Origin: Polyangiales bacterium | GTDB taxonomy: Bacteria > Myxococcota_A > Polyangia > Polyangiales > Ga0077539 | Direction: 5' to 3' | Length of the DNA stretch: 64,000 nucleotides | Assembly (NCBI GenBank): GCA_044229975.1 | Contig: JBGARZ010000005.1 | Coordinates: 320,001-384,000 of the forward strand | Notes under the pieces: generated by a model | The model's database searches: none | What the model saw: the letters and a program-made list of their open reading frames with translations, nothing else | Told to the model about the DNA's origin: nothing | Position numbers and translations under genes: made by a program | Shown: piece after piece, positions 6,360 through 50,766 of the stretch | Numbering within the stretch: position 1 is the first letter of the stretch | How the letters are laid out: every line of letters begins with the position of its first letter

Positions 6360-8111
6360 TCAGTGACCGGGCACGCGGACGGGACCACCGCGCACGCCGA
6401 GGGACTGGTGGTCGTAGTGGACGTAGACGCGCGTCCCGGGGTTGCTGGGCGTCGCGTACACGCCGCCCCAGCCGGCCGGCACATGGGGCCCCGTCCACTC
6501 GTAGAACCAGCGCGCGTCGGGCGGGCTCAGGTTGACGCAGCCGTGCGAGTGCGTCGCCCCGAAGCCGCCGTGCCAGAACGCTCCATGCAGCGCAAACGAC
6601 CCGTCGAAGTACATCACCCAGGGGACGTCCTCGATGCTGTACGGGCCGCCGCTGCTGTTGCCGTCCATGGTCGTCGCGACGTGCTTCGACAGGATGCGGA
6701 AGGCCCCTTGGACGGTCTCGTAGTTCTCGTCGGGGTTGGTGCGGTCGCGGCGACCGGAGCTCACCAGGGTGACGTACACCGCGCGCGTCCCCTCGTAGGC
6801 CACGGCGATCTGGCGGTCGAGGTTCACGTCGATCCAGCGCTCGTCGGGCGCGAGGTCGGACGGCGGGGCGTGCGGCGCCGCGATGCGCACCTGCCGCGCG
6901 CGGACGAAGCCGCCGTCGGTGGTGTGGTGATACGTCTCGCCCGCGATGGTCACCGGCGGATCGCTCGTGAGCGCCACGATGGAGCGCCAACCGAGCCGCG
7001 CGCGCTGCACCATGGTGCGACCGTTGAGGCGATAGGTCGCGGCGCCGGGGCCCATCGCGAAGGCCACGGGCAGCGGGTGCTCGGCGTCGAGGGCGGCGCC
7101 CTGGAAGGAGTTGGTGCCCGCGAGCACGTTGAGCGCGCCCGCGCGGACGTAGCCGCCGGACTGCGTGTGCCAGAAGGAGGTTCCGTTGGCGGAGCGCTCT
7201 TCGCGACGGAGCGAGACGTACATGCCCGCGAGGGCGCGTCGCTGCATCACGGAGCCGGGCGGGCCGACGAGGTCCTCGATGCGCACCGGACCTGGGACGG
7301 TGGGCTGCGACGCGATGCGAAGTGCCTCGACCGCGCGCTCATCTTCGCCAGTGGGCAACCGACGGAAGATGGGCGCGTTGCGTTCGGCGCGCGCGTAGGT
7401 GAAGGGCATCGGCGACGCGAGGTCGGGCGGCGCGGGGAGCCGCGAGGTGATGGCCTCGTCGGTGAGGCTGGCCGTGAGCGTCGCGAGCGCGCCGACGCAG
7501 ACGTATCCGCCGCCGTCGACCTCGTACCAGCCGCGCCCCGGAGCGTTGCGCCGCGCGGGGCAGCCGTCGTTGCCCACGGGACCGCGCACCACGGCGATGC
7601 GAGCGCCCGCGCGGAGGTAGCCGACCCACACGCCGGTGCGCCGCGGAACATCGACGACCCCCGTGCGCCAGCCGAGCGCGGTGATGGTCGGTCGCGTGTC
7701 GACGACGCCCGCGTCGGCCTCGACGGCGGCATCGTCCAGCGAAGCATCGGCGAGCGAAGCATCGGCGAGCGAAGCATCGGCGAGCGAAGCGTCGTCGGGC
7801 GAGGCGTCCGCGGCGTCATCGACGACGGCGTCGGGGAGGTCGGCGTCGGCCGCGCCCGCATCGAGCGGGCCCGCGTCGGGCTCGGGTTCGAGGGCTGATC
7901 CGCCGGCGTCGTCGTCGACCTGCGGCGGGCGGCTCGGGTCTTCCACGGGCGGCAACCGCAGCGGCTCGGCGACGGTCACCGCGGCCGCGTCGACTGGGGC
8001 GGTAGCGTTGCTCCAGAGCTCGTCGAGGCTCGCGCATCCGAGCGGCGACGCGAGCGCGAAGACGAAGGCAGCGTGGACGAGCGCGGAGCGGCCGCGAGCG
8101 GTGGGGCGCAT
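6360..8111 (-). CDS. L,D-transpeptidase (YkuD family) lipoprotein
   Basis: Lipobox-like PLGC; C-terminal ALHGAFWH...SHGCVNL catalytic motif. Confidence 0.9.
   Translation of the reverse strand: MRPTARGRSALVHAAFVFALASPLGCASLDELWSNATAPVDAAAVTVAEPLRLPPVEDPSRPPQVDDDAGGSALEPEPDAGPLDAGAADADLPDAVVDDAADASPDDASLADASLADASLADASLDDAAVEADAGVVDTRPTITALGWRTGVVDVPRRTGVWVGYLRAGARIAVVRGPVGNDGCPARRNAPGRGWYEVDGGGYVCVGALATLTASLTDEAITSRLPAPPDLASPMPFTYARAERNAPIFRRLPTGEDERAVEALRIASQPTVPGPVRIEDLVGPPGSVMQRRALAGMYVSLRREERSANGTSFWHTQSGGYVRAGALNVLAGTNSFQGAALDAEHPLPVAFAMGPGAATYRLNGRTMVQRARLGWRSIVALTSDPPVTIAGETYHHTTDGGFVRARQVRIAAPHAPPSDLAPDERWIDVNLDRQIAVAYEGTRAVYVTLVSSGRRDRTNPDENYETVQGAFRILSKHVATTMDGNSSGGPYSIEDVPWVMYFDGSFALHGAFWHGGFGATHSHGCVNLSPPDARWFYEWTGPHVPAGWGGVYATPSNPGTRVYVHYDHQSLGVRGGPVRVPGH
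7738..7790. repeat. 15-bp coding tandem repeat, ~3.5 copies (DASLA units)
   Basis: agcgaagcatcggcg repeated inside the L,D-transpeptidase linker. Confidence 0.9.
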
Positions 8112-8195
8112 GACGACTCCGGTGGAAGGGACTCATCGCGCGCTAGCACGCCGGGGGCGGTGGTCGTCCAGTTACGGGCAGACGGGCGGGGCCCC

Positions 8196-9254
8196 TCACT
8201 CATCAACCTGCTGCGACGCCGCGGCGACCGACTCCTCCTCGTACGTCCGCAAGATCGCCACGCAGAGCGTCACGATCACCGGACCCACCACGAGGCCGAT
8301 CACCCCGAACACTTCTACCCCGCCGAAGAGCGACACGAAGGTCAGCACCGCGGGCACGCCCGAGTCGCGTCCCACCAGCTTCGGGCGGATCACGTAGTCG
8401 GTGACGATGCCGACGATGAGCGCGCCGTACACCAGCTCGATGACGCCGCGCGCGAGGTGGCCCGACGCGATGAGGTAGATGCCCGCGGGGATCCAGACCA
8501 GCAGCGTCCCCACCGCAGGCACCAGCGACGCCACGGCCGTCAGCGCGCCGAAAAACGCCGGGTCGGGCACGCCCGTCACCCAGTAGCCGAGGCCCGCGAG
8601 GATGCCCTGAAGAACGCCCGTCACGACGGTGCCGCGCAGCACCTCGCTCCCCACCTTGCGAAACTGATTGAACAACGACCGCGTGTGGCGCGGCGCGAAG
8701 GGGAAGGCGACCTCGGCGCGGCGGACGATCGCGTTCCAGTGGCGGAGCACGTAGTAGGTGGCCAGGCCCATGAAGAAGAGCGTGAGCAGCCCCGCGAAGG
8801 TGGCGCCCGCGACGCCCGCCGCGACCTCCGCCGCGCGCGTCCCGGCCGACATGGCCTCGTCCTGAAGGTGCGCGAAGGCCGCGTCGGGGTTGGCGTGCAC
8901 CGCGCGGAGCCCACGCTCGACGAGCCGCCGCAGCACGCCACCCGACGCGAGCATCGTGGGCAGCGCCTGCACCAGCACGACGCCGCGCGTGATGAAGAGC
9001 ACCGCGAAGCCCGCGCAGGCCGCCGTCACCAGGGTCATCGCGCCGAGCACGCACACGAGGTCCGCGCTCGTGGCGCTCCACCCGCGACCCCGCAGGCGTC
9101 CGTAGAAGGGCTGGAGCGTGAAGGCCAGGAGAGCGCCCAGGAAGAGACCGACCCCGACGGGAGACGCGATCCACAAGAGCGCCGCCAGGGCCGCGAGCGC
9201 AAGGTACTTGAGCGCGCGAGCCTGGGACGCCTTCGTGGAGTGGTCGGCGCTCAC
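8196..9254 (-). CDS. AI-2E family transporter
   Basis: Multi-TM protein with LVPAVGTLLVWIP, DYVIRPKLVG and FGVIGLVVGP motifs. Confidence 0.9.
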   Translation of the reverse strand: MSADHSTKASQARALKYLALAALAALLWIASPVGVGLFLGALLAFTLQPFYGRLRGRGWSATSADLVCVLGAMTLVTAACAGFAVLFITRGVVLVQALPTMLASGGVLRRLVERGLRAVHANPDAAFAHLQDEAMSAGTRAAEVAAGVAGATFAGLLTLFFMGLATYYVLRHWNAIVRRAEVAFPFAPRHTRSLFNQFRKVGSEVLRGTVVTGVLQGILAGLGYWVTGVPDPAFFGALTAVASLVPAVGTLLVWIPAGIYLIASGHLARGVIELVYGALIVGIVTDYVIRPKLVGRDSGVPAVLTFVSLFGGVEVFGVIGLVVGPVIVTLCVAILRTYEEESVAAASQQVDE

Positions 9255-11094: not shown

Positions 11095-11141
11095 GGCCGC
11101 GAATCTAACCCGCATCGGCCCGCGTGATACTCGTACCGCCG

Positions 11142-13712
11142 ATGAAACTCCGTCGCGCCCGTCCCCTCGCCGCGTCACTCGTCCTCCTCGCGTGCTCGTC
11201 CGACCCGACGCCGACGAACACCCCCGACGCGTCGACCGACGCCGCCACCGACCGGCCGCGCGCCGACGTCCCCGTGGTGACGCAGTGCACCCGCACCGCG
11301 CCACTGGAGCCCGATGCGACGTCGCCGACCGTGCGGCTCGGCGCGCCGGTGACCATCACCCGCGACGCGCTGGGCATCCCCCACATCGAGGGGCAGACCG
11401 ACGACGACGTGATGTACGCCGCGGGGTACGCGCAGGCCGTCGACCGGATGTTCCAGATGGAGCTGGTGCGGCGCACGGCGCGAGGCCGGGCCGCCGAGGT
11501 GTTGGGGCGGGACAAGCTCTCGCAGGACCAGCTCGTGCGGATGGTGGGCATCCCCCACTGGGGCCACCAGAGCGCGCTGCGCGTGGCGCAGGAGCACCCC
11601 GAGACGCACCGGCTCATCGCGGCCTGGGTGGCGGGCGTCAACCGCCGCGTCGACGAGATCAACGCCGGCACCGTGCCGAAGCCGCCCGGGTTTCGCGCGA
11701 CGGAGTTCGACTTCGCGCCCGCCCGCTGGACCACCGACGACCCCTACCTCATCGGCCGCCTCCAGCTCTTCCGCAACGCGAGCCAGATCGACTACGACGT
11801 GCTCTCCACCGTCGCCCGCCGGTACGTCCCGCGCGCCGCGGCGCTGCCGCTCATCAACTCGCTCGGGAGCGCGTTCATCGTCCCGCCCGAGGAGCGCCCC
11901 GCCCCCGCGGTGCGAGCCCAGCAGGCGCCCCGCGACACGGGCACCCGACTCGCCAACTTCCTCCAGCGCATGTCTCCGCTCTCGGGCGGAGCGAGCAACA
12001 ACTGGGCAATCGCGGGGCGTCACAGCGCCAATGGTCGGCCGTTGCTGGCGGGCGATCCGCACCAGCCGTTGCAGAGCCCGACGGTGTTCTGGGCGCACCA
12101 CATGCGCAGCGCCGCGAGCGGTGGGCTCGACGTGGTGGGCTTCGCCTTCGCGGGCGCGCCCTTCGTCAACCTCGGGCACAACCGCCACGTCGCGTGGACG
12201 GCCACCACCGCGTACCCCGACACCATGGACCTCTTCGAGGTCATCGCCGGGAGCAACACCATCACCCTCGGCGGCGACTCGTACTCCGTGGTGCCGTGCC
12301 GCGAGCGCATCGCCGTCCGCGGCGGTGAGATGGTCGACCAGGTGGTCGAGGAGGTTCCGGGCCTCGGGGTGCTGCTGCCCGACGACCTCGCCCCGCTGCC
12401 CATCACCGAGAAGAACAACCGGGTGCTCTTCCGCTGGGCCGGCGAGCGCGCGACCGAGGAGGCCGACGTCTTCCTCGCCTTCAACCGCGCGACCGACGTG
12501 GCGGCCTTCGACGCGGCGGTGCGGCGCATGGAGATCGGCGCCTTCAACTTCATCTCGGCCGACGCACGGGACATCAGCTACCGCTCGCGGGTGCTCATCC
12601 CCGACCGCGGCGACACCCGCACCTTGGGCGCGCCGTACTCGGTGCTCGACGGCGCCAACCTCCGCAACCTGTGGACGGGCGACTTCCTGAGCGACGACCA
12701 GCAGCCGCACTCGCGCGGCGGAACGCGCGGCTTCCTCTGCTCGGCCAACAACGACCCCTTCGGGTTTACGAGCAACGGGCGCCTCGACGACGACCCCTGG
12801 TACTACGGCGTGTGGTTCGACCCGGGGCCCCGCGCGGCGCGCATCGAGTCCGAGCTCACGCGGCTCACGGCGGCGGGCAACGTCACCCGCGTCGACATGC
12901 AGCGGCTCCAGCTCGACACGTACAACCGCCTCGCCGACGACATGCTCCCGTCGCTCGCCGAGGCCGTCGCGCACATCCCCACCGACCCGGCACTCGCGAT
13001 GTACGTCGGTGACGCGCGCCTCGCCTCCCTCGCCGCGCAGCTCGCCGCGTGGGACCACCGCATGGACCGCGCGGCCTCGGCCCCGGTGGTGTTCGAGGCC
13101 TTCGAACATTTCTATGCGCGGCAGGTGCTGGCCGACGACCTCGACGTGATGTTCGACCCGCTCATCGCCAACGCGCCGGTGTACGTGATGAAGCTGCTCG
13201 CGCTGGTCATCAACGGCCGCTCGCCGATGGCCGCCCAGTACCTCCAGGGGGGACGCGACGTGCTGGCGTTGCGGGCGCTGGCGCAGACCCGCGACTGGCT
13301 CACGACGCGCTTCGGCGGGGTCGAGGCGACGCGTTACACCTGGGGGCAGTTCCACACGTCGCGGCCGACGACGCTGTTCACGCCGGAGGGACCGTTTGCG
13401 GTGGCGGCGGCGCCGGTCGACGGGTCGTTTGCGACGGTCAACGTCTCCGAAGGGGAGTTCTTCAACGGGACGACGGTGCGCGAGACGATGGAGTCGCACC
13501 ACGCGCCGGGCTACCGGATGGTCATCGGCTTCAACGACGACGGGACACCCGCGGCGACGGTGAACTTCCCGCGCGGCAACTCCGGCGACCCGATGTCCCG
13601 CTTCTACGCCAACACCCAGGCCGACTGGGACAGCGGCACCTACCAGCCGGTGCCCTACGAGCGCGCGTCCATCGACGCCGCCATGCAGGAGCGCACGACG
13701 CTCATGCCGTAG
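11142..13712 (+). CDS. Penicillin acylase / AHL-acylase family Ntn-hydrolase, lipoprotein
   Basis: Lipobox LLAC, RDALGIPHI, GYAQAVDRMFQM, catalytic ASNNWAIAG...LLAGDPH, SANN and GNSG. Confidence 0.92.
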   Translation: MKLRRARPLAASLVLLACSSDPTPTNTPDASTDAATDRPRADVPVVTQCTRTAPLEPDATSPTVRLGAPVTITRDALGIPHIEGQTDDDVMYAAGYAQAVDRMFQMELVRRTARGRAAEVLGRDKLSQDQLVRMVGIPHWGHQSALRVAQEHPETHRLIAAWVAGVNRRVDEINAGTVPKPPGFRATEFDFAPARWTTDDPYLIGRLQLFRNASQIDYDVLSTVARRYVPRAAALPLINSLGSAFIVPPEERPAPAVRAQQAPRDTGTRLANFLQRMSPLSGGASNNWAIAGRHSANGRPLLAGDPHQPLQSPTVFWAHHMRSAASGGLDVVGFAFAGAPFVNLGHNRHVAWTATTAYPDTMDLFEVIAGSNTITLGGDSYSVVPCRERIAVRGGEMVDQVVEEVPGLGVLLPDDLAPLPITEKNNRVLFRWAGERATEEADVFLAFNRATDVAAFDAAVRRMEIGAFNFISADARDISYRSRVLIPDRGDTRTLGAPYSVLDGANLRNLWTGDFLSDDQQPHSRGGTRGFLCSANNDPFGFTSNGRLDDDPWYYGVWFDPGPRAARIESELTRLTAAGNVTRVDMQRLQLDTYNRLADDMLPSLAEAVAHIPTDPALAMYVGDARLASLAAQLAAWDHRMDRAASAPVVFEAFEHFYARQVLADDLDVMFDPLIANAPVYVMKLLALVINGRSPMAAQYLQGGRDVLALRALAQTRDWLTTRFGGVEATRYTWGQFHTSRPTTLFTPEGPFAVAAAPVDGSFATVNVSEGEFFNGTTVRETMESHHAPGYRMVIGFNDDGTPAATVNFPRGNSGDPMSRFYANTQADWDSGTYQPVPYERASIDAAMQERTTLMP

Positions 13713-13801
13713 CGACGCTTCGAACTCTGCGCTTTCCTGCGTCGTCGAGGCCGCATCCGGTGTTAGCGTGCGGCAGCGCGCCGCAGGAGGGTGCAGCACC
13801 G

Positions 13802-16800
13802 ATGGCAGGCTCTGACGCGGCTCTCTATGCGCCCAGGCTCCAGGTCGAACGCATGCTGCGGCGTCACGCTGCGGGCGGTGCGGCGACCGAGCCCGACATC
13901 GTCCACGGTGCCTTCCTCCTCATCGACGTGGTGGGCTTCTCGCGCGTGGCGGCCGAGCTGTCCGCCCGCGGAGCCCTCGGCGCCGAGGAGCTCTCGCGGT
14001 TGGTGATCCCGCTCTTCGCGACGGTGACCGACGCGGCGGTGGGCATGGGCGGCGACATCCTCTACTTCGCGGGCGACGCGGTGGGCGTGGCCTTCCCGCG
14101 CGCCGACGGCGAGGCCGAGCATCAGCCCGTCCTCCGCGCGTGTCAGGCGGCGCTCGACGCGCTGGCCGAGACCAGCGCCCTCGTGGCCGAGCGCGGCGAG
14201 AAGATCCGCGTGCGCGCGGCCATCGGCTGGGGCGAGTGCTCCGTCGTCGAGGCGGGCGGCTACCAGGGCCACTGGCAGACCTTCGTTCATGGCGATGGCA
14301 TCGAAGACCTCGCGCGCGCCGACCGCTCGGCCGCCGAAGGAACACTCACGCTCAGCGCCGACGCCTTCGCGGTGGCGCGCCAGCACCTCGACGCCACGAC
14401 CATCGCCGGTGGAGTCGTCCGCGTGAGCGCGCTTCGTCAGCGGGTCGTGCCGGCCGAGCGACGCGCGCTGGAGTGTCCCCCAGAGGTGCTGGAGACGCTG
14501 GCCGCGGTGATTCCGCCGTCGGTGCAGTACCGCCTCGCGAGCGGCGTGCGCAACCTCATCGCGGAGTTTCGTCCGGTGACGGCGGTGTTTGCGCGGATCC
14601 ACGGGCTCGACCTGCGCGCGGCCGACTCTCCCTTCCAGAACGCCGTCGCCGCCGTGCAGCGCGCCATCTCCGACGCGGGCGGCGTGGTGCACGCCGTCAT
14701 CGGCGACAAGGGGGTCGGGGTGCTGGGTGTCTTCGGCGTTCCGCCCTTGGCCCACGAGGACGACGCCGCGCGGGCGATGGACGCCTCCATCGAGATGCAG
14801 TCCCGGCTGCGCCGCCTCGGCGTCTCGGCCTCGGTCGGCGTCGCGAGCGGAACGGTCTTCTGCACCGAGCACGGCGCGAGCGAGCGCCGGGGCTTCGACG
14901 TCGTGGGCGCGACGCTGGTGCTCGCCGCGCGGCTCATGCAGCTCGCCGACGCGGGCACCACCCTCTGCGACGAGCAGACGCAGCGCCTCGCCGACCGCCA
15001 CGGCCACTCGTTCAACCCGCGCGCCGCGGCCCACCTCAAGGGCTTCGCCCAGCCGGTGCCCAGCTTCGTGGCGCTCGGTCGACAGTCCGAGCGACCGCGT
15101 CGGCAGAGCGCCTTCTTCGGTCGCGCCGACGACCTGCATCGCCTCGATCGGCAGCTCGTGGCGCTCGTCGGCGGCGCCTCGCCGGGCGTCACCTGGATCG
15201 AGGGCGAGGCCGGCATCGGCAAGAGCACGCTGGTGCAGGCGCTGGTGGACCTCGCCGCGACGCGCTCGGTCGCCCTCGTGATGGGCGGCGCCGACGCGGT
15301 CGAAGCGCAGACGCCGTACTACTCGCTGCGCGGCGTGGTGCGCAGCCTCGCGGGCGCCCCCATCGAGCTCGCGCCCGACGCGGCGCGCGAGAAGGTCGTG
15401 CGCTGGGTGCGCGAGACAACGCCCGAGCACGCGTGGCTCACGGGGCTGCTCGAAGGCATCGTCCCGCTCGACCTGCCGGTGAGCGACGAGCTCAAGACCA
15501 TGGACGCCGCGGCCCGCGTCGACCGCCTCGCCGAGCTCATGGCCGCGCTCGTCGCCGGGGAGAGCGAGCGCCGCCCATTGGTGATCGTGCTCGAAGACCT
15601 CCACTGGCTCGGCTCCGAGACCTGGAACGTCCTCCGCGCCATCGCCGAGCGCGCCCCGCGCGTGTGGCTGGTGGGCACCTTCCGCCCGCTCGATCAGGAG
15701 CCCGCCATGGTGACCGCCCACGGCGAGCGCGTGCGCCTCACCGGGCTCCAGCGCGAGGGCACCGCCGCCCTCGTGGCGCGCCGCCTCGGCGTCGGGACGG
15801 CGCCCGACGAGCTCGTCGAGTTCGTGCACGAGCGCTCCGAGGGCAACCCGTTGTTCATCGAGGAGATCGTGAGCTCGCTCGTCGAGGCCGACGCCGTGCA
15901 CGTGCGTGACGGCGCGGTGGTCTCCGACGGCAACGTGAGCGCGGTTCCGCTGCCCACGACCATTACGGGCGTGGTGACCGCGCGCCTCGACCGCCTCGCG
16001 CTCCAGGTGCTCACCATCGCCAAGGTCGCCTCGGTCATCGGGCGCTCGTTTGCGCGCGACCTGCTCGCCGCCATCCTGCCCGACGACGAGCTCGCGCCGC
16101 AGCTCGGCGCCTCGCTCGACACCCTGGTCGCGCAGCGCTTCATCCAGCTCGAACCCGGCCTCGCCGACGTCTGGGTCTTCCGCCACGCGCTCATTCAAGA
16201 AGCCAGCTACGCGCTGCTCCCCTTCGCGCAGCGCCGCCCCCTGCACCGCGCCGCCGCCGCGCACATCGAGCGCGACCACGGGGCCGACCCCGCGTACGCC
16301 GGTCGGCTCGCGCACCACTACACCGAGGCCGACGAGGCCGACGCCGCGAGCCGCTACTGCGCCGTCGCCGGTCGCCTCGCCCTCGACGCGTACGCCCACA
16401 CCGCCACCATCGCCCTGCTCGAACGCGCGATGACCTTCGACATCCGCGTGCGCGGCGAGCTGGCGCTCGACAACCGCCGCGCCGCGTGGTGCCGGCAGAT
16501 CGCCGAGGCCCACCAGTACCAGCTCCACCACCAGGAGGCGCTCGACTGGTACGCCCGCGCCTGGACCCTCGCCGGGTGGAGCGCCCCGCGCGCCGGCCTG
16601 CGCACCCTCGCCGAGCTCTGGACCAACCTCTCGCGCCGCTGGTGGCCACCTAGACCGACCCGCGACCCCGCGCTCCTCGCGCGGTGTGAGCAGGTGCTCG
16701 CGAGCGCCGCGGACATGTGCTCGATCCTCATCTTCGCGGGGCAGACGACCAACTACCTCCACGCGGCCCTCGCGTCGGACAACGTCGGCCGCCTCGTCGA

Positions 16801-17836
16801 GCGCGGGCGCTTCGTGGCCGAGACGCGGGCGTCCATCGGATTCCTGCTCGTGGCGCTGAAGCTGCCGCGCGCGGGCATGGCCGACCTCGACACCGCCTGC
16901 GCCCTCGCCGAGAGCGCGACCGACGGCCACACCGCGGCGCCCTTCACCATCCGCGGTATGGCCCTGGTGGTGCTCGGCCGCGTCGAGGAGTCCCTCCCCT
17001 CGCACCGCCGCGCCATGGAGATCGCCGAGCGCTTCTCGGCGGGCCTCTGGCGCCACCGCACGCTCTTCATGTGCGCCGAGGCGACGCTCATGCTCGGCCG
17101 CTACGAGGAGACCGTCGCGCTCATGTCGCGCTGCGTTCCCATCGCGCGCCTCGCCGAGCCGTCGAGCGCGGGCCACGCCACGGCCATCATCGCCCTCTGC
17201 AAGCTGCGCACAGGAACCGCCGCCGCCGAGGTCATCGCCGACCTCGACGGGCCGCTCGGCGTCGCGATCACCGCGGGCGACAAGGCACTCCACAGATTCT
17301 CGGCGAAGGCCCTGCTCGCCTGGGCGTGCTGGGGCGACGGCAAGACCGACCGGGCCCTCGTCCTCGCGCGCGAGTCCATCGAGCTCGCGGCGGGCGGCGG
17401 CATGGAGTGCTTCTCGTACCTGCGCGCCATCGACGGGCACCTGCACCTCGTGCTGCTCTGCCTCGACGCCGTCGCGCGCGCCTCTGACGCCAACCGCGCC
17501 GAGCGCGAAGCCCTCCTCGGCCGCGCGCTCGGTCACGTCCGCAAGCAGGCCAGGCTGCACCCGGTGCTCGCGGCGCACCGCGACCTCTGCGACGGCCTCG
17601 ACGCCGCGCGGCGCGGCGACACCACGCGCGCCCGCACGAGGTTCGCCCGCTCCATCGAGGCGGCCCGCACGATGTCGTTGCCCTGGGAGGAGGCGCAGGC
17701 CGCCCTCGGGCTCGCCCGACTCTCCACCGGCGCCGAGCGCGACACGCTGCTGCGACGCGCCGAGGCCATCGCCACCGACACCCACGACGCGCTCATCGCG
17801 CGCGACGTCACCCAAGCGACTCCACGCGAGGACTGA
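13802..17836 (+). CDS. Tandem class III nucleotide cyclase + STAND/AAA NTPase + TPR-like helical region (soluble adenylyl cyclase-like architecture)
   Basis: C1 LIDVVGFS and FAGDA; C2 GDKG and LAARLM; Walker A GEAGIGKST; Walker B LEDLHW; GNPLFIEE; FRHALIQE. GGAGG RBS before ATG 13802. Confidence 0.88.
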   Translation: MAGSDAALYAPRLQVERMLRRHAAGGAATEPDIVHGAFLLIDVVGFSRVAAELSARGALGAEELSRLVIPLFATVTDAAVGMGGDILYFAGDAVGVAFPRADGEAEHQPVLRACQAALDALAETSALVAERGEKIRVRAAIGWGECSVVEAGGYQGHWQTFVHGDGIEDLARADRSAAEGTLTLSADAFAVARQHLDATTIAGGVVRVSALRQRVVPAERRALECPPEVLETLAAVIPPSVQYRLASGVRNLIAEFRPVTAVFARIHGLDLRAADSPFQNAVAAVQRAISDAGGVVHAVIGDKGVGVLGVFGVPPLAHEDDAARAMDASIEMQSRLRRLGVSASVGVASGTVFCTEHGASERRGFDVVGATLVLAARLMQLADAGTTLCDEQTQRLADRHGHSFNPRAAAHLKGFAQPVPSFVALGRQSERPRRQSAFFGRADDLHRLDRQLVALVGGASPGVTWIEGEAGIGKSTLVQALVDLAATRSVALVMGGADAVEAQTPYYSLRGVVRSLAGAPIELAPDAAREKVVRWVRETTPEHAWLTGLLEGIVPLDLPVSDELKTMDAAARVDRLAELMAALVAGESERRPLVIVLEDLHWLGSETWNVLRAIAERAPRVWLVGTFRPLDQEPAMVTAHGERVRLTGLQREGTAALVARRLGVGTAPDELVEFVHERSEGNPLFIEEIVSSLVEADAVHVRDGAVVSDGNVSAVPLPTTITGVVTARLDRLALQVLTIAKVASVIGRSFARDLLAAILPDDELAPQLGASLDTLVAQRFIQLEPGLADVWVFRHALIQEASYALLPFAQRRPLHRAAAAHIERDHGADPAYAGRLAHHYTEADEADAASRYCAVAGRLALDAYAHTATIALLERAMTFDIRVRGELALDNRRAAWCRQIAEAHQYQLHHQEALDWYARAWTLAGWSAPRAGLRTLAELWTNLSRRWWPPRPTRDPALLARCEQVLASAADMCSILIFAGQTTNYLHAALASDNVGRLVERGRFVAETRASIGFLLVALKLPRAGMADLDTACALAESATDGHTAAPFTIRGMALVVLGRVEESLPSHRRAMEIAERFSAGLWRHRTLFMCAEATLMLGRYEETVALMSRCVPIARLAEPSSAGHATAIIALCKLRTGTAAAEVIADLDGPLGVAITAGDKALHRFSAKALLAWACWGDGKTDRALVLARESIELAAGGGMECFSYLRAIDGHLHLVLLCLDAVARASDANRAEREALLGRALGHVRKQARLHPVLAAHRDLCDGLDAARRGDTTRARTRFARSIEAARTMSLPWEEAQAALGLARLSTGAERDTLLRRAEAIATDTHDALIARDVTQATPRED

Positions 17837-17843
17837 AGCTCAC

Positions 17844-20800
17844 ATGACCGACGCACGGCACCGGGTTCTCATCGTAGGCGGCGGCCCGTCCGCCCTCAGC
17901 ACGGCGTGGGCGCTCACCGCGACCGCGGATCTGCGCGCACGGTACGACGTGACGGTGCTCCAGATGGGGTGGCGCCTCGGCGGCAAGGGGGCCAGCGGGC
18001 GCGACCTCGATCGCCACGCGCGCATCGAGGAGCACGGGCTCCACATCATGTTCGGCTTCTACGACAACTTCTTCCGGGTGATGAAGGAGACCTACGCCGA
18101 GCTCGGTCGCTCGCCCGATGCGCCGCTCGCCACCTTCGCCGACGCCTTCAACCCCGCCGAGAGCGGAACGCTCGAGTGGTACTACGACGACGTCTGGCGC
18201 CCGATCACCATCGGGCTGCCGCGCAACGAGGCCGAGCCTGGCACCGGGACGGTCTACGACAGCAGCGGCACGTACCTCTGGACGCTGGTCGCGGGCGCCA
18301 TCGGAGCGACGCTCGGCGCGCCCACCCTCGAACGCCTCCAGCACCTCATCTTCCCCTTCGGCAAGGCGTGGGACCGCGACCCTGGTGGCTCCGTCGCCGC
18401 GGGCCTGAGCGACCCGCTGGTCACCCTCTTCGTCGACCTGCTCAAGGCCCTGCTCGACGCTGCGTCCGCCGTCGACCGGGCCGCGCACGAGCTCGCGCCG
18501 GGGCTCATGGCCCTGCTCTCCAAGGCCGAGCGCGCCATCACGACGCTCGTCGAGCACGTCGTCGGGGGCGACTCCACCGCGGCGCTGGCGCTGTCGTTTC
18601 TCGACTTCGGGCAGGCGCTCCTGCGGGGCATCCTCGCCGACCGCGTGCTCGACCCCGGCGGCTTCGAGCGCATCGACAACGAAGACTGGGCCGACTGGCT
18701 GGTGCGCCACGGAATGCTCGACGAGCACCGCGACTGCCCCGGGGTGAAATTCGTGTACGACGCGGCGTTTTCGTACCCGCACGGCGGCAACAAGCCGCGC
18801 ATGGCCGCCGGCACCGCGATGCGCCTCCTCCTGCGCGTCGGCGGAACCTACAAGGGCGCCGCCTACTACAAGATGCAGGGAGCGATGGGCGACGTCATCA
18901 TCGCGCCGCTCTACCAGGTGCTGGCCGAGCGCGGCGTGACGTTTCGCTTCTTCCAGCAGGTGACGGCGGTCGAGGCCGAGGGCGACCGCCTCGCGCGGGT
19001 GCGCATCCAACCGCAGGCGGTGGTGTCCGCGGGAGCCGATCGCTACGACCCGCTGGTCACGGTGAAGGGCGTCCCGAGCTGGCCCAACCGCCCACAGTGG
19101 GACCAGCTCACCGGCTATCCCGCCGCGTGGCGCGATGACCCCTCGCACTTCGAGTCCTACTACGCCGACACGCCGATGCTCCCGGAGACGGTGCTCACCC
19201 AGGGCGTCGACTTCGACACCTGCGTGCTCGCGACGCCCATCCAGTGCCTGCCCTTCCTCGCGCCCGCCCTGTGCGCGCGACCGAAGTGGAACGCCATGGT
19301 GACCTCCATCCAGGCCGTGCAGACCGTCGCGGTGCAGCTCTGGTTCAAGAAGACGACGCACCAGCTCGGGTGGAAGGGTGAGGCGCCGCTCTTGAGCGAC
19401 TTCTCCGATCCGCTCAACACCTGGTGCGACATGACCCAGACGCTGGTGCGCGAGGAGTGGCCGACGGGGTCCGCCCCGACGAGCGTGCAGTACTTCACCG
19501 GGCAGCAGCCGGGGCCGACGGTGTGCCCGCCGCGCTCCGACCGCACCTTCCCCGCGCGCATGAAGGCCGAGGCGCTCGACGAGGTCGCCCGCTTCATGGA
19601 CTCGCAGCTCACCATCCTCCTGCCCGGCGCGGGGTCGCCCGTCGCGCCGCACGCGGTCGACGGCGCGCTGGTGGTCGACCGCTACGTGCGCAGCAACTGC
19701 GAGCCCTCCGAGCGCTGCACGCTCTCGCTCCCCGGCAGCAACCGCCACCGCATGCGCGCCGACGGGTCGGGCATCGAGCACCTGCGCCTCGCGGGCGACT
19801 GGCTCGACAACGGCCTCTACGCCGCGTGCCTCGAAGGCGCCATCATGGGCGGGCTCCTCTGCGCCAACACCTTCGACGGGGTGAAGCAACCGCTGGTGGG
19901 CGCGCGCTTCGACGACGGCGACATCGACCCCGCGCACGGGACGCGCCCGCCCGTCACGCCCGAGCGCCCCGCGGCGCCGCCGTGGGTGGCGCGCTACCGA
20001 CCCAGCAAGAAGGTGAAGGTCGCGGTGCTCGGCAGCGGGGTCGGCGCGATGACCGCGGTGTGGGGTCTCCTGCAATCGCCCTTCGCCGAGCGCTTCGAGA
20101 TCACCGTGTACCAGTACGGCTGGCGGCTCGGCGGCAAGTGCGCGAGCGGCCGGAAGATGGACGCCCACGCCCGCATCCAGGAGCACGGCCTGCACGTCTG
20201 GACCGGCATGTACGACAACGCCTTCCGCATGATGAAGACGGTGTACGCCGACCTCGCGCGGCCGCACGACGTGCCGCTCTCCACCTGGTACGACCCGAGC
20301 GACAAGAAGCGCAGCGCGTTCTGGCCGCACAGCGCCATCTCGCTCGGCGAGGTGAGCGGCGCGCACCCGGGGCTGTGGCAGATCGAGGCGCCGATCAACC
20401 GCGACACGCCCGGCAACGGCAAGCTGCTCGACTCACCGGGCGCCTACCTCATCGAGCTCGTCGAGATGGTGGAGGAGATGCTCTTCGGGGCGGACTTCCT
20501 CGCGCGGCAGCAGCACGAGGGCGGCGACGGCGCGCGGGGATTGCTCAGCTCGCTCGTGGGCGCGGTGGACTCCCTCGTGAAGGACAAGGACCCGGCGAAG
20601 GCCGCGTTTCGATTGCGTGTCGGGAGCCACTGGGCGCGCGATCTCTCGGCGCACATCCGCCGGGCCGAAGGGCTGGTGGACGGCGCCGTCGAAGACGCCA
20701 TCGAGCTCGCGCAGAAGCTGGTGCGCGCCTTCGAGCGGGAGTTCGTGGCGATCGACGCGGGCGACCTCGACGCGCGCCATGCGTTCGAGCTCATCGAGTT

Positions 20801-22235
20801 CGCGATGGCGATGGCGATCGGGGTGCTGCGCGACGGGGTGCTGCACCGGGGCTTCGACGTGGTGGATGGGGTCGAGTTCACCGAGTGGATGCGGCGCCAC
20901 GGGGCGTCGAGGGTCGCGCTCGATGGGGCGCTCGTGCGCGGCTGGCACGCCTTCGCCTTCGCCGCCATGCACGGCGAGATCGAACACTGGAGCATGAGCG
21001 CGGCGACGGCGCTGCGAACGCTCTTCCGCTGCGTGGCGACCTTCAAGGGAGCGTTCTTCTGGATGATGCAGGCGGGGATGGGCGACACCATCTTCACGCC
21101 GCTCTACGAGTGGATGACGAAGCGGGGAGTGCGCTTCGAGTTCTTCCATCGGGTCGAGGAGATCGACTGCTCGCTCCACGGCGTGACGACGCCGCTGGTG
21201 CAGCGCGTGCGGGTGGCGCGGCAGGTCGACCTGGCGCCGGGCGTGGAGAAGTACGACCCGCTGGTGCCGGTGAAGGGCGTCTCGTGCTGGCCCGCCGATC
21301 CGCGCTGGGAGCAGCTCGACCCGGCGCAGGTGGCGAAGCTGCGCGGCGACGGCACGAAGCCAGCCATCAACCTGGAGTCGTACTACGCCGACTGGGAGCC
21401 GGTGGCGCGGCGCGACCTGCTGCTCGGCGAGCACTTCGACCTCGTCATCGCGGGGCTCTCCGTCGAGCCCATGCGAACGCTCGCCCCGACGCTGCTCCAG
21501 CACTGCACGCGGCTCAAGACGGCGGTCGACGCCGCGCGCACCAACCAGACCATCGCGGCGCAGCTCTGGCTCGACGTCACGCCCGCATCGATGGGCTGCA
21601 AGACCCCTCCCTCCATCGGCGCGGGCTTCGCCGAGCCGCACAACACCTTCGCCGACCTCAGCCACCTGCTGCCGCGCGAGGACTGGAGCGCCGACGACGC
21701 GCCGAAGACCATCGTGTACCTGTGCGGGGTGTTCGGCGACGAGGTCACTCCGCTGCCGCCTCCGTCCGACCACGATTTTGCGCGGCGCAGTCAGCTCCGC
21801 GTCGAGGCGATGACCGAGTCGTGGCTGCTCTCCTCGTGGGGTCAGCTCTACCCGGCGGCGACCATCCCCGGCACCGACGGCATCCGCTGGGCGCGCCTGC
21901 ACGCCCCGGCCGGGCTCAGCGGGTCACAGCGTCTGCGGGCGCAGTTCGTCCGCGGCAACATCGACCCGAGCGAGCGCTACGTGCTGTCGCCGCCCGGGAC
22001 GGCCGCGACGCGCATCCGCGCCGACGAGGCGGGCTTCGACAACCTCGTGGTGGCGGGCGACTGGCTCTACACGGGGCTCAACGTCGGGTGCGTCGAGGCC
22101 GCCGTGATGGGCGGACTCCAGGCGTCGCGCGCGCTGTCTGGCTATCCCGCGGTGATCGTCGGCGATACGGGGTGGTGGTTCGGTCGGCCGGACGAGGCGA
22201 CGGCCGTGAGCGGGGCTACGATGACAGCGCGTTGA
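17844..22235 (+). CDS. Tandem-duplicated FAD/NAD(P)-binding oxidoreductase (two COG3349 / carotenoid-desaturase-like units in one 1463-aa ORF)
   Basis: Two sets of GxG Rossmann, QxGWRLGGKxASGR, EHGLH, MGDxI and AGDW...G.LEGA/VEAA motifs. Second unit starts near 20007. Confidence 0.85.
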   Translation: MTDARHRVLIVGGGPSALSTAWALTATADLRARYDVTVLQMGWRLGGKGASGRDLDRHARIEEHGLHIMFGFYDNFFRVMKETYAELGRSPDAPLATFADAFNPAESGTLEWYYDDVWRPITIGLPRNEAEPGTGTVYDSSGTYLWTLVAGAIGATLGAPTLERLQHLIFPFGKAWDRDPGGSVAAGLSDPLVTLFVDLLKALLDAASAVDRAAHELAPGLMALLSKAERAITTLVEHVVGGDSTAALALSFLDFGQALLRGILADRVLDPGGFERIDNEDWADWLVRHGMLDEHRDCPGVKFVYDAAFSYPHGGNKPRMAAGTAMRLLLRVGGTYKGAAYYKMQGAMGDVIIAPLYQVLAERGVTFRFFQQVTAVEAEGDRLARVRIQPQAVVSAGADRYDPLVTVKGVPSWPNRPQWDQLTGYPAAWRDDPSHFESYYADTPMLPETVLTQGVDFDTCVLATPIQCLPFLAPALCARPKWNAMVTSIQAVQTVAVQLWFKKTTHQLGWKGEAPLLSDFSDPLNTWCDMTQTLVREEWPTGSAPTSVQYFTGQQPGPTVCPPRSDRTFPARMKAEALDEVARFMDSQLTILLPGAGSPVAPHAVDGALVVDRYVRSNCEPSERCTLSLPGSNRHRMRADGSGIEHLRLAGDWLDNGLYAACLEGAIMGGLLCANTFDGVKQPLVGARFDDGDIDPAHGTRPPVTPERPAAPPWVARYRPSKKVKVAVLGSGVGAMTAVWGLLQSPFAERFEITVYQYGWRLGGKCASGRKMDAHARIQEHGLHVWTGMYDNAFRMMKTVYADLARPHDVPLSTWYDPSDKKRSAFWPHSAISLGEVSGAHPGLWQIEAPINRDTPGNGKLLDSPGAYLIELVEMVEEMLFGADFLARQQHEGGDGARGLLSSLVGAVDSLVKDKDPAKAAFRLRVGSHWARDLSAHIRRAEGLVDGAVEDAIELAQKLVRAFEREFVAIDAGDLDARHAFELIEFAMAMAIGVLRDGVLHRGFDVVDGVEFTEWMRRHGASRVALDGALVRGWHAFAFAAMHGEIEHWSMSAATALRTLFRCVATFKGAFFWMMQAGMGDTIFTPLYEWMTKRGVRFEFFHRVEEIDCSLHGVTTPLVQRVRVARQVDLAPGVEKYDPLVPVKGVSCWPADPRWEQLDPAQVAKLRGDGTKPAINLESYYADWEPVARRDLLLGEHFDLVIAGLSVEPMRTLAPTLLQHCTRLKTAVDAARTNQTIAAQLWLDVTPASMGCKTPPSIGAGFAEPHNTFADLSHLLPREDWSADDAPKTIVYLCGVFGDEVTPLPPPSDHDFARRSQLRVEAMTESWLLSSWGQLYPAATIPGTDGIRWARLHAPAGLSGSQRLRAQFVRGNIDPSERYVLSPPGTAATRIRADEAGFDNLVVAGDWLYTGLNVGCVEAAVMGGLQASRALSGYPAVIVGDTGWWFGRPDEATAVSGATMTAR

Positions 22236-24378
22236 GGGTGGCGCTGGCGGCGCTGCGGCCCGAGTCGACGGCGCCTTCGAGGCTGCCTGTGAGCAGGCGG
22301 GTGTACGTCCAGTCGCCCGCGACGACGAGGTTGGGGTAGCCCGTCTCGGCGGCGTGCAGGCGGTACTGCGCGGTGCCCGGCAGGATGGCCGTGTAGAGCT
22401 GGTCGGGACCGCTGTTGGGGCGCACCTGCACGGCGCACACGTGCAGGCTCGACAGGCTGTACGGCTGGAGGGGCGCGGCGGCGCCGGGCCAGAGCGTCCC
22501 GATGGCGAAGCGGGCCCAGTTGCCGGCGTCGAAGAGGGCGCGCTGGTGCTGCATGGCGAGCGCGGAGACACCCGCCAGGCGGACGGACTCGGGGTCGGCG
22601 GCGGGGTCGGCGGCGAGGATGCCGGGCGCGCCGAGGGGCCCGAGGAGGTGCGAGATGGCCTTGCAGTGGCCGTCCCAGTTCTCGGAGCCGAGCACCGGGC
22701 TGGGGTCTTCCCAGGTCGCGTACGGGAGAATGTACGACGAGAGGATGGGCGCCCCGCGGTGCCACCCGACGGTGGGCAGCTCACAGCGAAACCAGATGCG
22801 CAGCGACTGGGTCTCGATGCCGCCGACGTTGAGCACGGCCTCGCGCCAGCGAGCGTTGGCGGCGAGCAGCGACGGCGCGGAGAGCGGGTACATCGCGTGG
22901 CGCAGGGTCGTGACGAGCACGTCGAAGTCGACGCCGTCCTGGAGCACGACGTCGGGGCCCTTGCGCGGATACCAGGCGTTGTCCATGGCGGGCTGCACCT
23001 CGGGGGGCGGGCGCTGCGCGACCTCGAAGGGCTGCGGAATCGGGCACTCCGAACCGTCGGTCAGGACGGGCTGGAAGAGGCCCTGCCACATGCCGGGCGC
23101 GTGCGGCCCGGGCACTGGCGCGAGCTGCTCCCACAGCGGGTCGTCGGGCCACACGGCGCGGCCGGGGATGATGCCCTTGATGAAGGGGTCGTAGGCGAAG
23201 GTGCCGGCGGTGACGTCGGCCTGGCGTTCGAGCACGACGCGGGCGATGCGGCCGTCGTCGCCGGGGACGATGTCCCACACCCGGTGGAAGTACGCGAAGC
23301 GCACGCCGCGGTACTGGAGCGCGGCGACGATGGGCCCGATGAAGGAGTCGCCGATCTCGCTCCTGAACTGGTACGCGACCGAGCCGCGGTAGTTGAAGAG
23401 CAGCTCCAGCATGCAGACGAGGGAGGCGCCCGCGGCGGCGGAGGGCGCGTTGGCCGAGCCCCCGGCGAAGGCGGCGATGGCGGCGTACCAGACCTGCGTC
23501 GCGGCCGAGTCGACGGCGAAGGCTTCACCGCCGTGGAGGCGCAGCCACTGGCGGAAGTCGTAGGCGTCCATCTTCGCGAGCCCGGCGGGCGTGTACGCCG
23601 CGTCTTCGAGGGCGCCGATGAAGATGGTGAGCCCGAGCTCGGTGAGGATGAGCGCGCGGAGGATGTCCACGTCGAGGTCGGACAGCGGGCCGAGCACGTC
23701 GCGGGCGATGCCGCGCACCAGCTTCGCCACGTCGACCATGGCGCCCCACTCCATCGGGGTGATGCTCCCGAGGACGAACTTCTCGGCCTGCCCGATGGCG
23801 TCGCGCGCGAGGCGCTCGAAGGGGTCGGTGATGAGCGAGCTGATCTTCCCGAGGAGGTCGCTCAGCACGCCCCGCTCGGAGCTGGCCGCCGCGGCGCCGC
23901 GGCGCATGTGGCCGACGAGGTCGGGCTGGAGCACGCGTTCGAGCGAGGCGCCGAGCAGGCGCGCGAGGCCGTGGTGCATCGACCAGGGGCTGTGCTCCTC
24001 GGGGAGCTTCGGGAGGGTGATGGCCCAGTCGGTCCACCCGCACTGGTAGAGCTGCTTGAGCACCACGAGGTCGCGGGCGACGAGCTCGTCGGGGCCGTGG
24101 CCGAAGCGGGTGTCATTGTGCTCGGCGAGCACCGCGTAGGCGTCGGCCATGAGCGCGAGCGACTGGTGGTAACACCCGAACATGTAGTGGGTGCCGTTCT
24201 GGTTGATCCACTGCTCGGGGCCCACGCGGCCGCTGGCGCAGAGCCCGCCGGCGCGCCACCCCATCTGGTAGACGGTGACCTCCACCGACGCCTGGTGGGC
24301 GGGATCAGACAGGTGCCACGCGGTGGCGAGGCCCGACGGCCCTGCCCCGAGAATCACGACGCGACGACGTTCACCCAT
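22216..24378 (-). CDS. FAD/NAD(P)-binding oxidoreductase, third paralog of the same family
   Basis: LGAGPSG, QMGWRAGGLCASGR, IGDSFI and AGDWTYTRLLTGSLEGA. Convergent, with a 20-bp 3' overlap. Confidence 0.85.
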   Translation of the reverse strand: MGERRRVVILGAGPSGLATAWHLSDPAHQASVEVTVYQMGWRAGGLCASGRVGPEQWINQNGTHYMFGCYHQSLALMADAYAVLAEHNDTRFGHGPDELVARDLVVLKQLYQCGWTDWAITLPKLPEEHSPWSMHHGLARLLGASLERVLQPDLVGHMRRGAAAASSERGVLSDLLGKISSLITDPFERLARDAIGQAEKFVLGSITPMEWGAMVDVAKLVRGIARDVLGPLSDLDVDILRALILTELGLTIFIGALEDAAYTPAGLAKMDAYDFRQWLRLHGGEAFAVDSAATQVWYAAIAAFAGGSANAPSAAAGASLVCMLELLFNYRGSVAYQFRSEIGDSFIGPIVAALQYRGVRFAYFHRVWDIVPGDDGRIARVVLERQADVTAGTFAYDPFIKGIIPGRAVWPDDPLWEQLAPVPGPHAPGMWQGLFQPVLTDGSECPIPQPFEVAQRPPPEVQPAMDNAWYPRKGPDVVLQDGVDFDVLVTTLRHAMYPLSAPSLLAANARWREAVLNVGGIETQSLRIWFRCELPTVGWHRGAPILSSYILPYATWEDPSPVLGSENWDGHCKAISHLLGPLGAPGILAADPAADPESVRLAGVSALAMQHQRALFDAGNWARFAIGTLWPGAAAPLQPYSLSSLHVCAVQVRPNSGPDQLYTAILPGTAQYRLHAAETGYPNLVVAGDWTYTRLLTGSLEGAVDSGRSAASATLNALSS

Positions 24379-49011: not shown

Positions 49012-50676
49012 CTACGCCAGCACGAGCTCGCGCAGCAGGTCGAGGCTCACGTTGCCGCACGCGAGCACCCGCCGATGAAACTCCTTCAAGGGCCCCAGCT
49101 CCGCGCGCACCCAGTCGTCGCGCAGCGCGAGCATCGCCCGCTGGCCGACCTTGTACGAGATGGCCTGCGCGGGCCATCCCAGGTAGCGCGTCACCTCGCT
49201 GCGGGCGGTCTCGGCGTTCATGCCGCCGAGGGTCTCCATCATCTCGACCGCGCGATCGAAGGTCCACGGCTGACCCGCGTGCAGCAGCGCATCGTCGGGG
49301 ATGGTGAGCCCGAGGTGCGACCCGATGTCGATGACCACGCGGCACGCGCGCATCATCTGGTTGGCGAGCATCCCGAGCTCGTACTCGGGCTTCTCGTAGT
49401 AGCCGAGCTCGCGCATGAGCTGCTCGACATAGAGCGCCCACCCCTCGGCGTAGCCCGAGTAGCCGTAGGCCACGCGGTGCAGGCGCGAGAGGTTCTCGGT
49501 GAGCGACACCTGGATGCCGCACTGGAGGTGATGCCCCGGAAAGCCCTCGTGGTAGGCCGTGCTGACCTCGTCCCAGAGCGCGAACGGGCCGTCGCCGGTG
49601 AGCGAGTACCAGACGGTTCCGGGGCGCGAGAAGTCCTCCGAGGGCGGGAGGTAGTACGCGCCAGGAGGGCCGCCATCGGGCGCGGCCTTCACGTCGACGC
49701 GACGGATGGAGTCAGGCACGTCGAAGTGCTTGCCGTCGAGCTCGGCGAGGGCGCGTGACTGGCGGTCGTTCATCGCGGCGAGGAAGCTCGCGCGGTCGGG
49801 CGCACCGCGCGCGGGGTCGCTGCGCAACATCGCCATGGTGTCGGTGAGCGACGAGCCTGGCGCGATGGCCGACGCGAGGGCGGTCATCTCTTCGTGGAGG
49901 CGTCGCACCTCGGTCCAGCCCCAGGCGTAGGTCTCCTCGGGGTCGGGGGTCGACCCGAGGAAGCGTCGCATCTCGCGCAGGTACCGCGGCCTGCCGACGC
50001 CGTCGTCGGACTTCGCGCGCGGGAGGTAGGTGCCTTCGAGCCAGTCGCTCATCGATCCGTACGCCGCACACGCTTGCGTCGCGGCGGCGGTCACGCGCGC
50101 ACCGAGCGCGGCGTCCTCGATGCCCGCGGCGGCGAACCTCGATGCGAGCGCGCGGAAGGACGACTGCTCGCCCTCGTTGGAGCGCCCCTGCTCGATGGCG
50201 GCGCGCACCTGTCGGACGGCGACGAGCTGTCCGTGATCGAGGCCCTCGGCGAGCGAGCGGCGGTAGCCGTCGAGCACAGTGGCGACGCCTTCGAGGCGCG
50301 CGGCGATGGCCGACCACCCGGCGGCGCTGGTGGTGTCCATGGAGTCGAACACCATGCGCACCGACTGAAACGGCGACGCGAGGTGGTTGAGGTCGACGCG
50401 GTGGTCGCCGTGATCGAAGGCGGCGAGGTCTTGATCGAGCCAGTCGAGGGCGACGTGGACGGCGAGGCGCGACCATCGATCGGGCTGCGGCGGGAGCGCG
50501 GCGAAGCGATCGCGCCAGGAGCGCAGCGTGGCGGCGGCGTGGGCCGCGCCGTCGGGGGAGAGGTCGTCCCAGCGATGGTCGTGGCCGGGGATGCCCATGA
50601 AGGTGGCCTGCATGGGGCGGAGCGCCGCGAGCTCGTCGACGAGCGCGTGGCTGAGGGCGAAGGGGTCGTTGGTCAT
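49012..50676 (-). CDS. DUF885 family protein (metallopeptidase-like)
   Basis: AYYLPPSEDFSRPG, YHEGFPGHHLQ, EGWALY and WPAQAISYKVG. Confidence 0.92.
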   Translation of the reverse strand: MTNDPFALSHALVDELAALRPMQATFMGIPGHDHRWDDLSPDGAAHAAATLRSWRDRFAALPPQPDRWSRLAVHVALDWLDQDLAAFDHGDHRVDLNHLASPFQSVRMVFDSMDTTSAAGWSAIAARLEGVATVLDGYRRSLAEGLDHGQLVAVRQVRAAIEQGRSNEGEQSSFRALASRFAAAGIEDAALGARVTAAATQACAAYGSMSDWLEGTYLPRAKSDDGVGRPRYLREMRRFLGSTPDPEETYAWGWTEVRRLHEEMTALASAIAPGSSLTDTMAMLRSDPARGAPDRASFLAAMNDRQSRALAELDGKHFDVPDSIRRVDVKAAPDGGPPGAYYLPPSEDFSRPGTVWYSLTGDGPFALWDEVSTAYHEGFPGHHLQCGIQVSLTENLSRLHRVAYGYSGYAEGWALYVEQLMRELGYYEKPEYELGMLANQMMRACRVVIDIGSHLGLTIPDDALLHAGQPWTFDRAVEMMETLGGMNAETARSEVTRYLGWPAQAISYKVGQRAMLALRDDWVRAELGPLKEFHRRVLACGNVSLDLLRELVLA

Positions 50677-50766
50677 GGTGGCGAGCGAGACCAACGCTTC
50701 GACGGGCGTGGCGTCAAGCCGCGGTCGTTCTTGACAGCTACCGACGGCGGGAGGGACATCGTCGAC

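Follow-up and report, generated by a model that had tools for sequence, protein, structure and literature searches.

STAND ATPases are switches in which a ligand drives nucleotide exchange and oligomerization, and to our knowledge almost no ligands have been found for those that carry cyclase or kinase domains. The closest counterparts of the locus described here are soluble adenylyl cyclase (sAC, ADCY10) and bacterial STANDs of the SWACOS type, a name that we apply from architecture and take to mean a STAND with a cyclase or Ser/Thr kinase. The locus lies at positions 13802-24378 of a 64,000-nucleotide stretch of DNA from a Polyangiales bacterium (GenBank assembly GCA_044229975.1, contig JBGARZ010000005.1, positions 320,001 to 384,000; this whole stretch is hereafter called the window). 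It consists of a cyclase-STAND gene and three paralogous flavoenzyme units, A, B, and C. As in sAC and the SWACOS-type proteins, the window protein has a C1-C2 cyclase pair, a STAND P-loop module, and an extended helical tail, in that order, with both metal Asp residues, the Lys, and the Arg conserved (available part of PMC12802110). Unlike sAC, it has Val for the catalytic Asn and Asp at the position of sAC Thr405, and it is genetically tied to a three-enzyme module, whereas no such partner of sAC was found in the available part of PMC12802110. The same text gives no isoform-specific regulator of human sAC among the molecules tested. In the available parts of PMC13236601 and PMC7159879, SWACOS is mentioned merely as a clade.

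Other described systems resemble parts of the locus. MalT (of the MalT-MalY pair) and PH0952 have an NTPase with a sensor fold of the TPR type (Foldseek ranked 6mfv first and 8bob sixth) and pathway enzymes as partners; here, in contrast, the output is an N-terminal cyclase instead of a DNA-binding domain, and the partners are flavoenzymes resembling phytoene desaturase (PDS). PDS, ZDS, and HpnE share with these flavoenzymes the closest solved fold (5mog), and the N-terminal flavin adenine dinucleotide (FAD)-binding and C-terminal GD motif regions align. The window units are, however, ~720 amino acids (aa) long compared to ~470, contain long helical insertions, and lie outside any carotenoid or hopanoid cluster. 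LuxI/LuxR offers an analogy in that a signal-making enzyme is encoded beside its receptor, but there is no homology, and the receptor role here would fall to a STAND ATPase whose outputs are second messengers or kinases. Pycsar and Avs systems are alike in the class III cyclase domain (weak PycC matches) and the STAND-TPR layout; the window system differs from them in having no toxic effector or Avs model match, an adenine-type Lys, and little defense context. As the initial annotation of this DNA, made by a model from the sequence, had supposed, no description of a flavoenzyme/cyclase-STAND pairing was found in the literature searched, which took in few subscription journals. The parts of the locus are as follows.

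13802-17836, + strand: tandem class III cyclase (C1-C2)/STAND NTPase/TPR protein, 1344 aa, with the architecture of ADCY10.
13895-15085, + strand: cyclase domains C1 (aa 32-191) and C2 (aa 227-428), from alignment to human sAC (4clf) and homolog alignments.
15107-16399, + strand: STAND module with Walker A GEAGIGKS (Lys474) and Walker B ..EDLHW (Asp599), followed by domains of helical and winged-helix type.
16394-17833, + strand: all-helical TPR-type region, likely the sensor, from the model and from profile matches to TPR proteins, PH0952, and the MalT sensor domain.
17844-19913, + strand: flavoenzyme unit A, N-terminal half of a 1463-aa open reading frame (ORF), with GxGxxG, GWRLGGKGASGR, EHGLH, and GDW intact.
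19989-22235, + strand: flavoenzyme unit B, C-terminal half of the 1463-aa ORF, with a phytoene-desaturase-like fold.
22216-24378, - strand: flavoenzyme unit C, 720 aa, converging, with QNGTH replacing EHGLH and the FAD-binding motifs kept.

The gene layout had been described correctly in the initial annotation. A GGAGG (13786-13790) stands ahead of the cyclase-STAND ORF, whose stop codon (17834-17836) is followed after 7 bp by the ATG, at 17844, of the two-unit ORF (17844-22235, + strand). The stops of the latter and of the third paralog, the unit C gene (24378-22216, - strand), overlap by 20 bp (22216-22235). Units A and B are 35% identical across 737 columns, and C is 28% identical to each of them. 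The A-B fusion is not an assembly artifact, because it is a single frame also at L031 and L032, from two other genera, and the junction is intact in a second, near-identical assembly (P0039). The absence of prenyl or carotenoid genes, also claimed at the outset, holds for the 50 window ORFs scanned against Pfam; the carotenoid genes of the source genome (G000) are on another contig, C14 (L153:7101-10540), and include a B12-binding MerR (CarH-type) regulator, a CrtI-like desaturase, and a phytoene synthase. A promoter and terminator scan was uninformative (0 promoters and 3 terminators, compared to 0.3 and 2.8 in shuffles).

The initial annotation had proposed a sensor coupled to a lipid- or small-molecule-modifying flavoenzyme module, to be checked by looking for recurring cyclase-STAND partners in gene neighborhoods. 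This core idea passed the co-occurrence test set beforehand. Among 80 loci sampled from at least 619 GTDB matches to the flavoenzyme family, with flanks of up to 10 kb per side, a STAND was present at 38, whereas genome density predicts 1.1 (3.4 if the genome counts are tripled); these figures come from a sample that includes kin (about ten rhodobacterial loci) and a STAND profile built from the same loci. Densities were whole-genome counts of window-type STANDs with at most 43 candidates scored per genome; G000 has 21, and up to 45 matches per genome were seen in the survey. In genomes with a single STAND of this type, it adjoined the flavoenzyme in 15 of 23 cases. Nearly all linked STANDs (36 of 38) were within 2.5 kb, and 28 were on the same strand. 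The association is not due to chance. It is one-way, in that most tandem-cyclase STANDs have no flavoenzyme partner. This asymmetry, like the common acetoacetate decarboxylase (ADC)-fold partner of the family and the loss of the catalytic Asn described below, had escaped the initial annotation. The neighbors of 14 unlinked ones included KAS III near three (L131, L137, and L143), a UbiE-type methyltransferase near three (L135, L142, and L149), a lipoxygenase-like gene (L140), a P450 (L144), and an amine oxidase in one. These raw counts, which have no background control, suggest that a STAND with a small-molecule enzyme is a general pattern.

The full cassette (A, B, C, and the STAND) was found at eight further loci (L031, L032, L034, L052, L156, L157, L158, and L161), where the genes occur in three or more different orders. 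L052 is from Gemmatimonadota, and the last four are metagenome loci, two of which have unit A cut by the contig end; at L034 (the same as L051) the unit A ortholog (7205-9252) is interrupted by a frameshift at about residue 365. Outside the window, L031, and L032, the cassettes have A and B as separate genes. A stop/start overlap joins the cyclase gene to that of unit A at two loci (L031 and L052) and to that of unit C at L141. In a midpoint-rooted FastTree phylogeny from which partial units were excluded, the parts fell into clades of 9 sequences for A (support, 1.0), 13 for B (1.0), 19 for C (1.0), and 14 for the STAND (0.93), all 14 at cassette loci; the clades were matched without a formal test. 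A clade C query gave 24 metagenome loci, 16 of them clade C-like, and a cyclase or STAND was present at 10 of the 16; in the other 6, the contig ended within 2.6 kb upstream of C. No unit B was found in 20 to 22 kb at L141 and L168, and no fifth shared gene was found across the 21 loci compared. A metagenome scan with the cyclase protein, using patterns that were too specific, found none. A cyclase-enzyme fusion suspected in G020 from a 2825-aa open frame was rejected, the cyclase being in another frame. In the family to which the window's genome belongs, 4 of 31 genomes (4 genera) and 0 of 8 congeners have the cassette. The codon GC content at third positions (GC3) of the cassette matches that of the flanking genes, so the cassette is patchily distributed but was not imported recently.

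The outputs of the linked STANDs, scanned in 33 of 44, were diverse: a tandem cyclase, a single cyclase (with a zinc ribbon, SAM, or neither), a Ser/Thr kinase, a kinase plus GAF-histidine kinase, and a kinase plus PP2C. These STANDs form four or more subclades that differ in output, and TPR regions that resemble each other can be attached to unlike outputs. Examples are the L146 cyclase with the L089 and L047 kinases and the L054 kinase with the L077 and L074 cyclases. A Crp gene was found at 10 of the 80 loci, every one with a cyclase-STAND. A histidine kinase gene was found at 14 of 42 loci without a STAND compared to 1 of 38 with one (raw counts, no background control). The swapped outputs, the histidine kinases in the place of the STAND, and Crp beside cyclase-STANDs are more readily explained by a diffusible link than by a single fixed contact between proteins. 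A rhodobacterial version (L103, L111, L114, L116, and L125) has a flavoenzyme-ADC fusion, a cyclase-STAND, and Crp in series, with a phage-tail-collar-domain gene upstream, and several of the strains are cultured. At L038 and L040, the flavoenzyme accompanies a polyprenyl synthase and a giant ADC-like protein (with a terminal Jacalin domain in L038); L038 also holds a kinase-STAND-GAF-histidine kinase.

Both cyclase stretches of the window protein align to C1 and C2 of sAC (4clf; E = 1.3e-22). If residue roles are assumed to be those of sAC (metal Asp, substrate Lys, transition-state Arg, and Asn), then Asp42 and Asp92 in C1 and Lys303 and Arg377 in C2 are kept. C2 also contains Asp366, and Val373 is found where the catalytic (transition-state) Asn would be. 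The Asn is replaced in 4 of 14 aligned cyclases from cassette loci (Val in the window and L031; Ser or Ala in L032 and L034) and kept in 10, and all four that lost it have gained Asp or Glu at position 366. Since cyclases without this Asn can be active, and may accept GTP (available part of PMC4886424), the window cyclase is predicted to be active but possibly weak or less specific; its predicted product is likely cyclic AMP (cAMP). The source genome has 27 matches to cyclic nucleotide-binding domains. A close tandem-cyclase STAND in the congener G001 (L152:8997-13067) has an intact Asn and no flavoenzyme partner within 20 kb.

In the remainder of the protein, Pfam detected an AAA_16 NTPase at aa 438-620 and a TPR_12 match below the cut-off. 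The Walker A and B motifs of the NTPase are intact, and helical, winged-helix, and repeat domains follow. An AlphaFold model of aa 436-1344 (predicted local distance difference test [pLDDT], 91; predicted template modeling score, 0.89) had the STAND-TPR protein PH0952 (6mfv) as its top Foldseek match, with Avs3, Apaf-1, SAMD9, and MalT lower. The label "NLR-like" in the initial annotation is apt in the broad STAND sense and not in the strict sense of NACHT/NB-ARC plus LRR: the NACHT match covers 27 residues and scores 21.5 bits (cut-off, 26.7), and no LRR family in Pfam matched the protein.

The flavoenzyme family is large. Unit B has at least 2244 homologs, mostly of ~720 aa, among 7994 candidates scored, with fusions to an ADC domain (PF06314) or a CrtC/AttH lipocalin pair in some of them. 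The FAD-binding GxGxxG, GG, and GD motifs are present in A, B, and C. The fold was modeled for B alone of the three units (pLDDT, 88.5), and two aligners gave rice phytoene desaturase (5mog) as the top match (Foldseek E = 1e-16; Z = 27.1, root mean square deviation 2.9, 454 aligned; next Z, 22.6). For oleate hydratase, the Pfam MCRA family scored 24.5 bits (cut-off, 23), no single stretch of the match being significant, and Z was 17.9 compared to 27.1 for PDS. In clade C, EHGLH is changed to QNGTH in 7 of 7 aligned members, a conserved, clade-specific change that looks like altered chemistry rather than decay. No other close paralogs were found in the 10-Mb genome by tblastn, which returned a single distant 546-aa relative. 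This relative is encoded on contig C38 of G000 (L151:8356-15225) in overlapping, co-oriented genes with a xanthine-dehydrogenase-like molybdoenzyme and a CrtC/AttH lipocalin protein, the lipocalin domain of which is also fused to the unit-B-like homologs P0014 and P0038. No relatives were found in viral contigs.

The cassette is a real conserved module made of known kinds of parts in a new arrangement, and from its anatomy, co-inheritance, folds, and conserved motifs we infer how it may work. In the explanation that we favor, with a probability of roughly 0.45, the three long-diverged flavoenzymes make a lipid-type signal and the neighboring STAND is its receptor, with a predicted cAMP output. 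Units A, B, and C would bind FAD and, one after another, catalyze different desaturation or isomerization steps on a hydrophobic lipid of the isoprenoid or polyene type. Because the cassette has no synthase, the starting lipid would be supplied by genes outside it. The flavoenzyme product would then be the ligand bound by the TPR region of the STAND, and binding would lead to nucleotide exchange, oligomerization, and relief of C1-C2 cyclase inhibition. The cyclase rate would perhaps be low because the catalytic Asn is lost. The cyclic nucleotide, likely cAMP, would act on Crp-type proteins encoded elsewhere. The logic would be that of a signal-synthase/receptor pair in which the receptor output is interchangeable. 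A lipid substrate is likely, to judge from the PDS fold, the lipocalin fusions, and genes near other family members: polyprenyl synthase near L038, L040, L094, L113, and L150 (and L115 by clustering), squalene/phytoene synthase near L062, squalene cyclase near L071, and FadL and TonB receptors at 5 of 80 loci each.

A number of observations weigh against this explanation. A common companion of the family, at 59 of 80 loci, is an ADC-fold partner, which points to carbonyl chemistry. The Lys motif of this partner, that of the Schiff-base Lys, is present in 53 of the 62 sequences that the first profile hit and in 0 of 11 rhodobacterial extensions. No ADC-fold partner was found at the three-unit cassettes, nor in G000 by two home-made profiles; a Pfam ADC search of G000 gave one subthreshold match, on another contig. 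Isoprenoid synthesis genes flank only 5 of 80 loci and are absent from the flanks of the cassette (the genes scanned being cluster representatives and adjacent genes), and the uptake genes fit an imported compound equally well. Unit B is only 14% identical to PDS, and a shared fold shows no function. The kinship with ZDS and HpnE given in the initial annotation is borne out at the fold level and not as family membership, since the scores fall far below the curated cut-offs (97.9 bits against 283 for HpnE, 62.5 against 622 for ZDS, and 42.4 against 569 for PDS), and in the Atlas oleate hydratase clusters are level with HpnE clusters (0.95). No STAND was found at 42 of 80 loci, in some owing to short contigs, and the linkage counts draw on related genomes and a profile trained on the same loci. 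In a reverse test on 300 genomes of the phylum, with 5 candidates scored in each, the tandem-cyclase domain was found in 48; of these, 35 had no flavoenzyme match, and 6 of the other 13 were linked within ~5 kb. The L167 STAND adjoins a C-like gene yet falls outside the 14-member clade, L169 carries a unit C whose downstream 10 kb contain no partner, and unit C in the window is on the opposite strand.

The flow could also be reversed, the STAND sensing an outside or stress-derived lipophilic compound and inducing, via cAMP and Crp, flavoenzymes that degrade or detoxify it. This would account for the lack of a synthase in the cassette, for the FadL or TonB uptake genes at 10 of 80 loci, and for Crp beside cyclase-STANDs at 10, and it resembles the control of catabolism by MalT-type STANDs (available part of PMC10427625). 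We consider it rather unlikely. Sensor and enzymes are encoded by tightly coupled genes on a single strand in the window, L031, L052, and L141, so that the sensor would induce itself, and the prenyl synthases beside other family members point to biosynthesis. An explanation that we rate as improbable is direct contact between the STAND and one of the flavoenzymes, whose redox state or bound lipid would gate the switch; the divergent unit C would be the most likely partner. MalY and MalT set a precedent (available part of PMC10427625), clade C has QNGTH throughout and travels with one STAND clade, and none of the small molecules tested in the available part of PMC12802110 was found to regulate full-length sAC at its C-terminal part. 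A fixed interface, however, poorly explains a family whose members accompany four or more STAND subclades and, apparently, histidine kinases instead, and unit C retains all FAD-binding motifs and may simply be a third catalyst.

A role in defense, which the initial annotation had placed beside signaling, is unlikely. In such a role the STAND would detect phage infection and signal to the flavoenzymes, whose product would be antiviral or would alter the membrane. Many TPR-sensor STANDs are defense receptors (available part of bioRxiv 10.64898/2026.01.04.697583), Avs3 ranked second in Foldseek, though with a low TM-score (0.18), and the cassette is patchy within the family and absent from 8 other genomes of the genus. 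Nevertheless, this particular scheme is very doubtful. The outputs (Crp, kinases, and phosphatases) are regulatory rather than toxic, and PADLOC gave only weak cyclase-domain (PycC) matches for the STAND, none for the flavoenzymes, no match to Avs models, and no cognate toxic effector. A defense scan of 112 neighbor genes, made without a background control, returned mostly shared domains (kinase, cyclic nucleotide-binding, radical SAM, and ankyrin) and about three plausible defense genes (L054, L062, and L067). The lack of relatives in viral contigs and a GC3 like that of the flanks argue in the same direction, and of the two roles named at the outset it is signaling that is favored. Chance adjacency is scarcely credible. 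G000 is rich in STANDs, and most tandem-cyclase STANDs have other neighbors, but 38 linked loci against about 1 expected and four matching clades over rearranged loci refute it.

Two other features of the window were noted. A penicillin-amidase/PvdQ-like acylase with a lipoprotein-like leader (11124-13712, + strand) lies 89 bp upstream of the cyclase gene in the same orientation. It was considered as a fifth part of the cassette and dropped, since among loci L031 to L150 a distant homolog is beside the module in L146 alone, directly upstream of a family flavoenzyme. At 49894-52703, an AAA_21/AAA_15 ATPase and an unannotated 277-aa ORF lie in a patch of lower GC3 (0.67 to 0.77, small ORFs) and are possibly an acquired or defense-type pair.

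Seen more widely, the locus may belong to a widespread and so far undescribed class of bacterial lipid-hormone systems, in which desaturase-fold enzymes, with ADC-fold helpers or, as here, as three specialized paralogs, would make an isoprenoid-type signal for cognate STAND receptors with plug-in outputs; we put this forward only tentatively. Cyclase- and kinase-STANDs are abundant in myxobacteria, cyanobacteria, and actinobacteria, and a receptor packaged with its candidate signal-making enzymes makes the question of their ligands testable by coexpression. The locus also opens an uncharacterized flavoenzyme family, of at least the size given above, related to carotenoid desaturases. If the lipid-hormone reading is true, it would give sAC-type proteins a first small-molecule ligand for their sensor half, and the cassette may throw light on the regulation of the STAND-TPR tail in human sAC.

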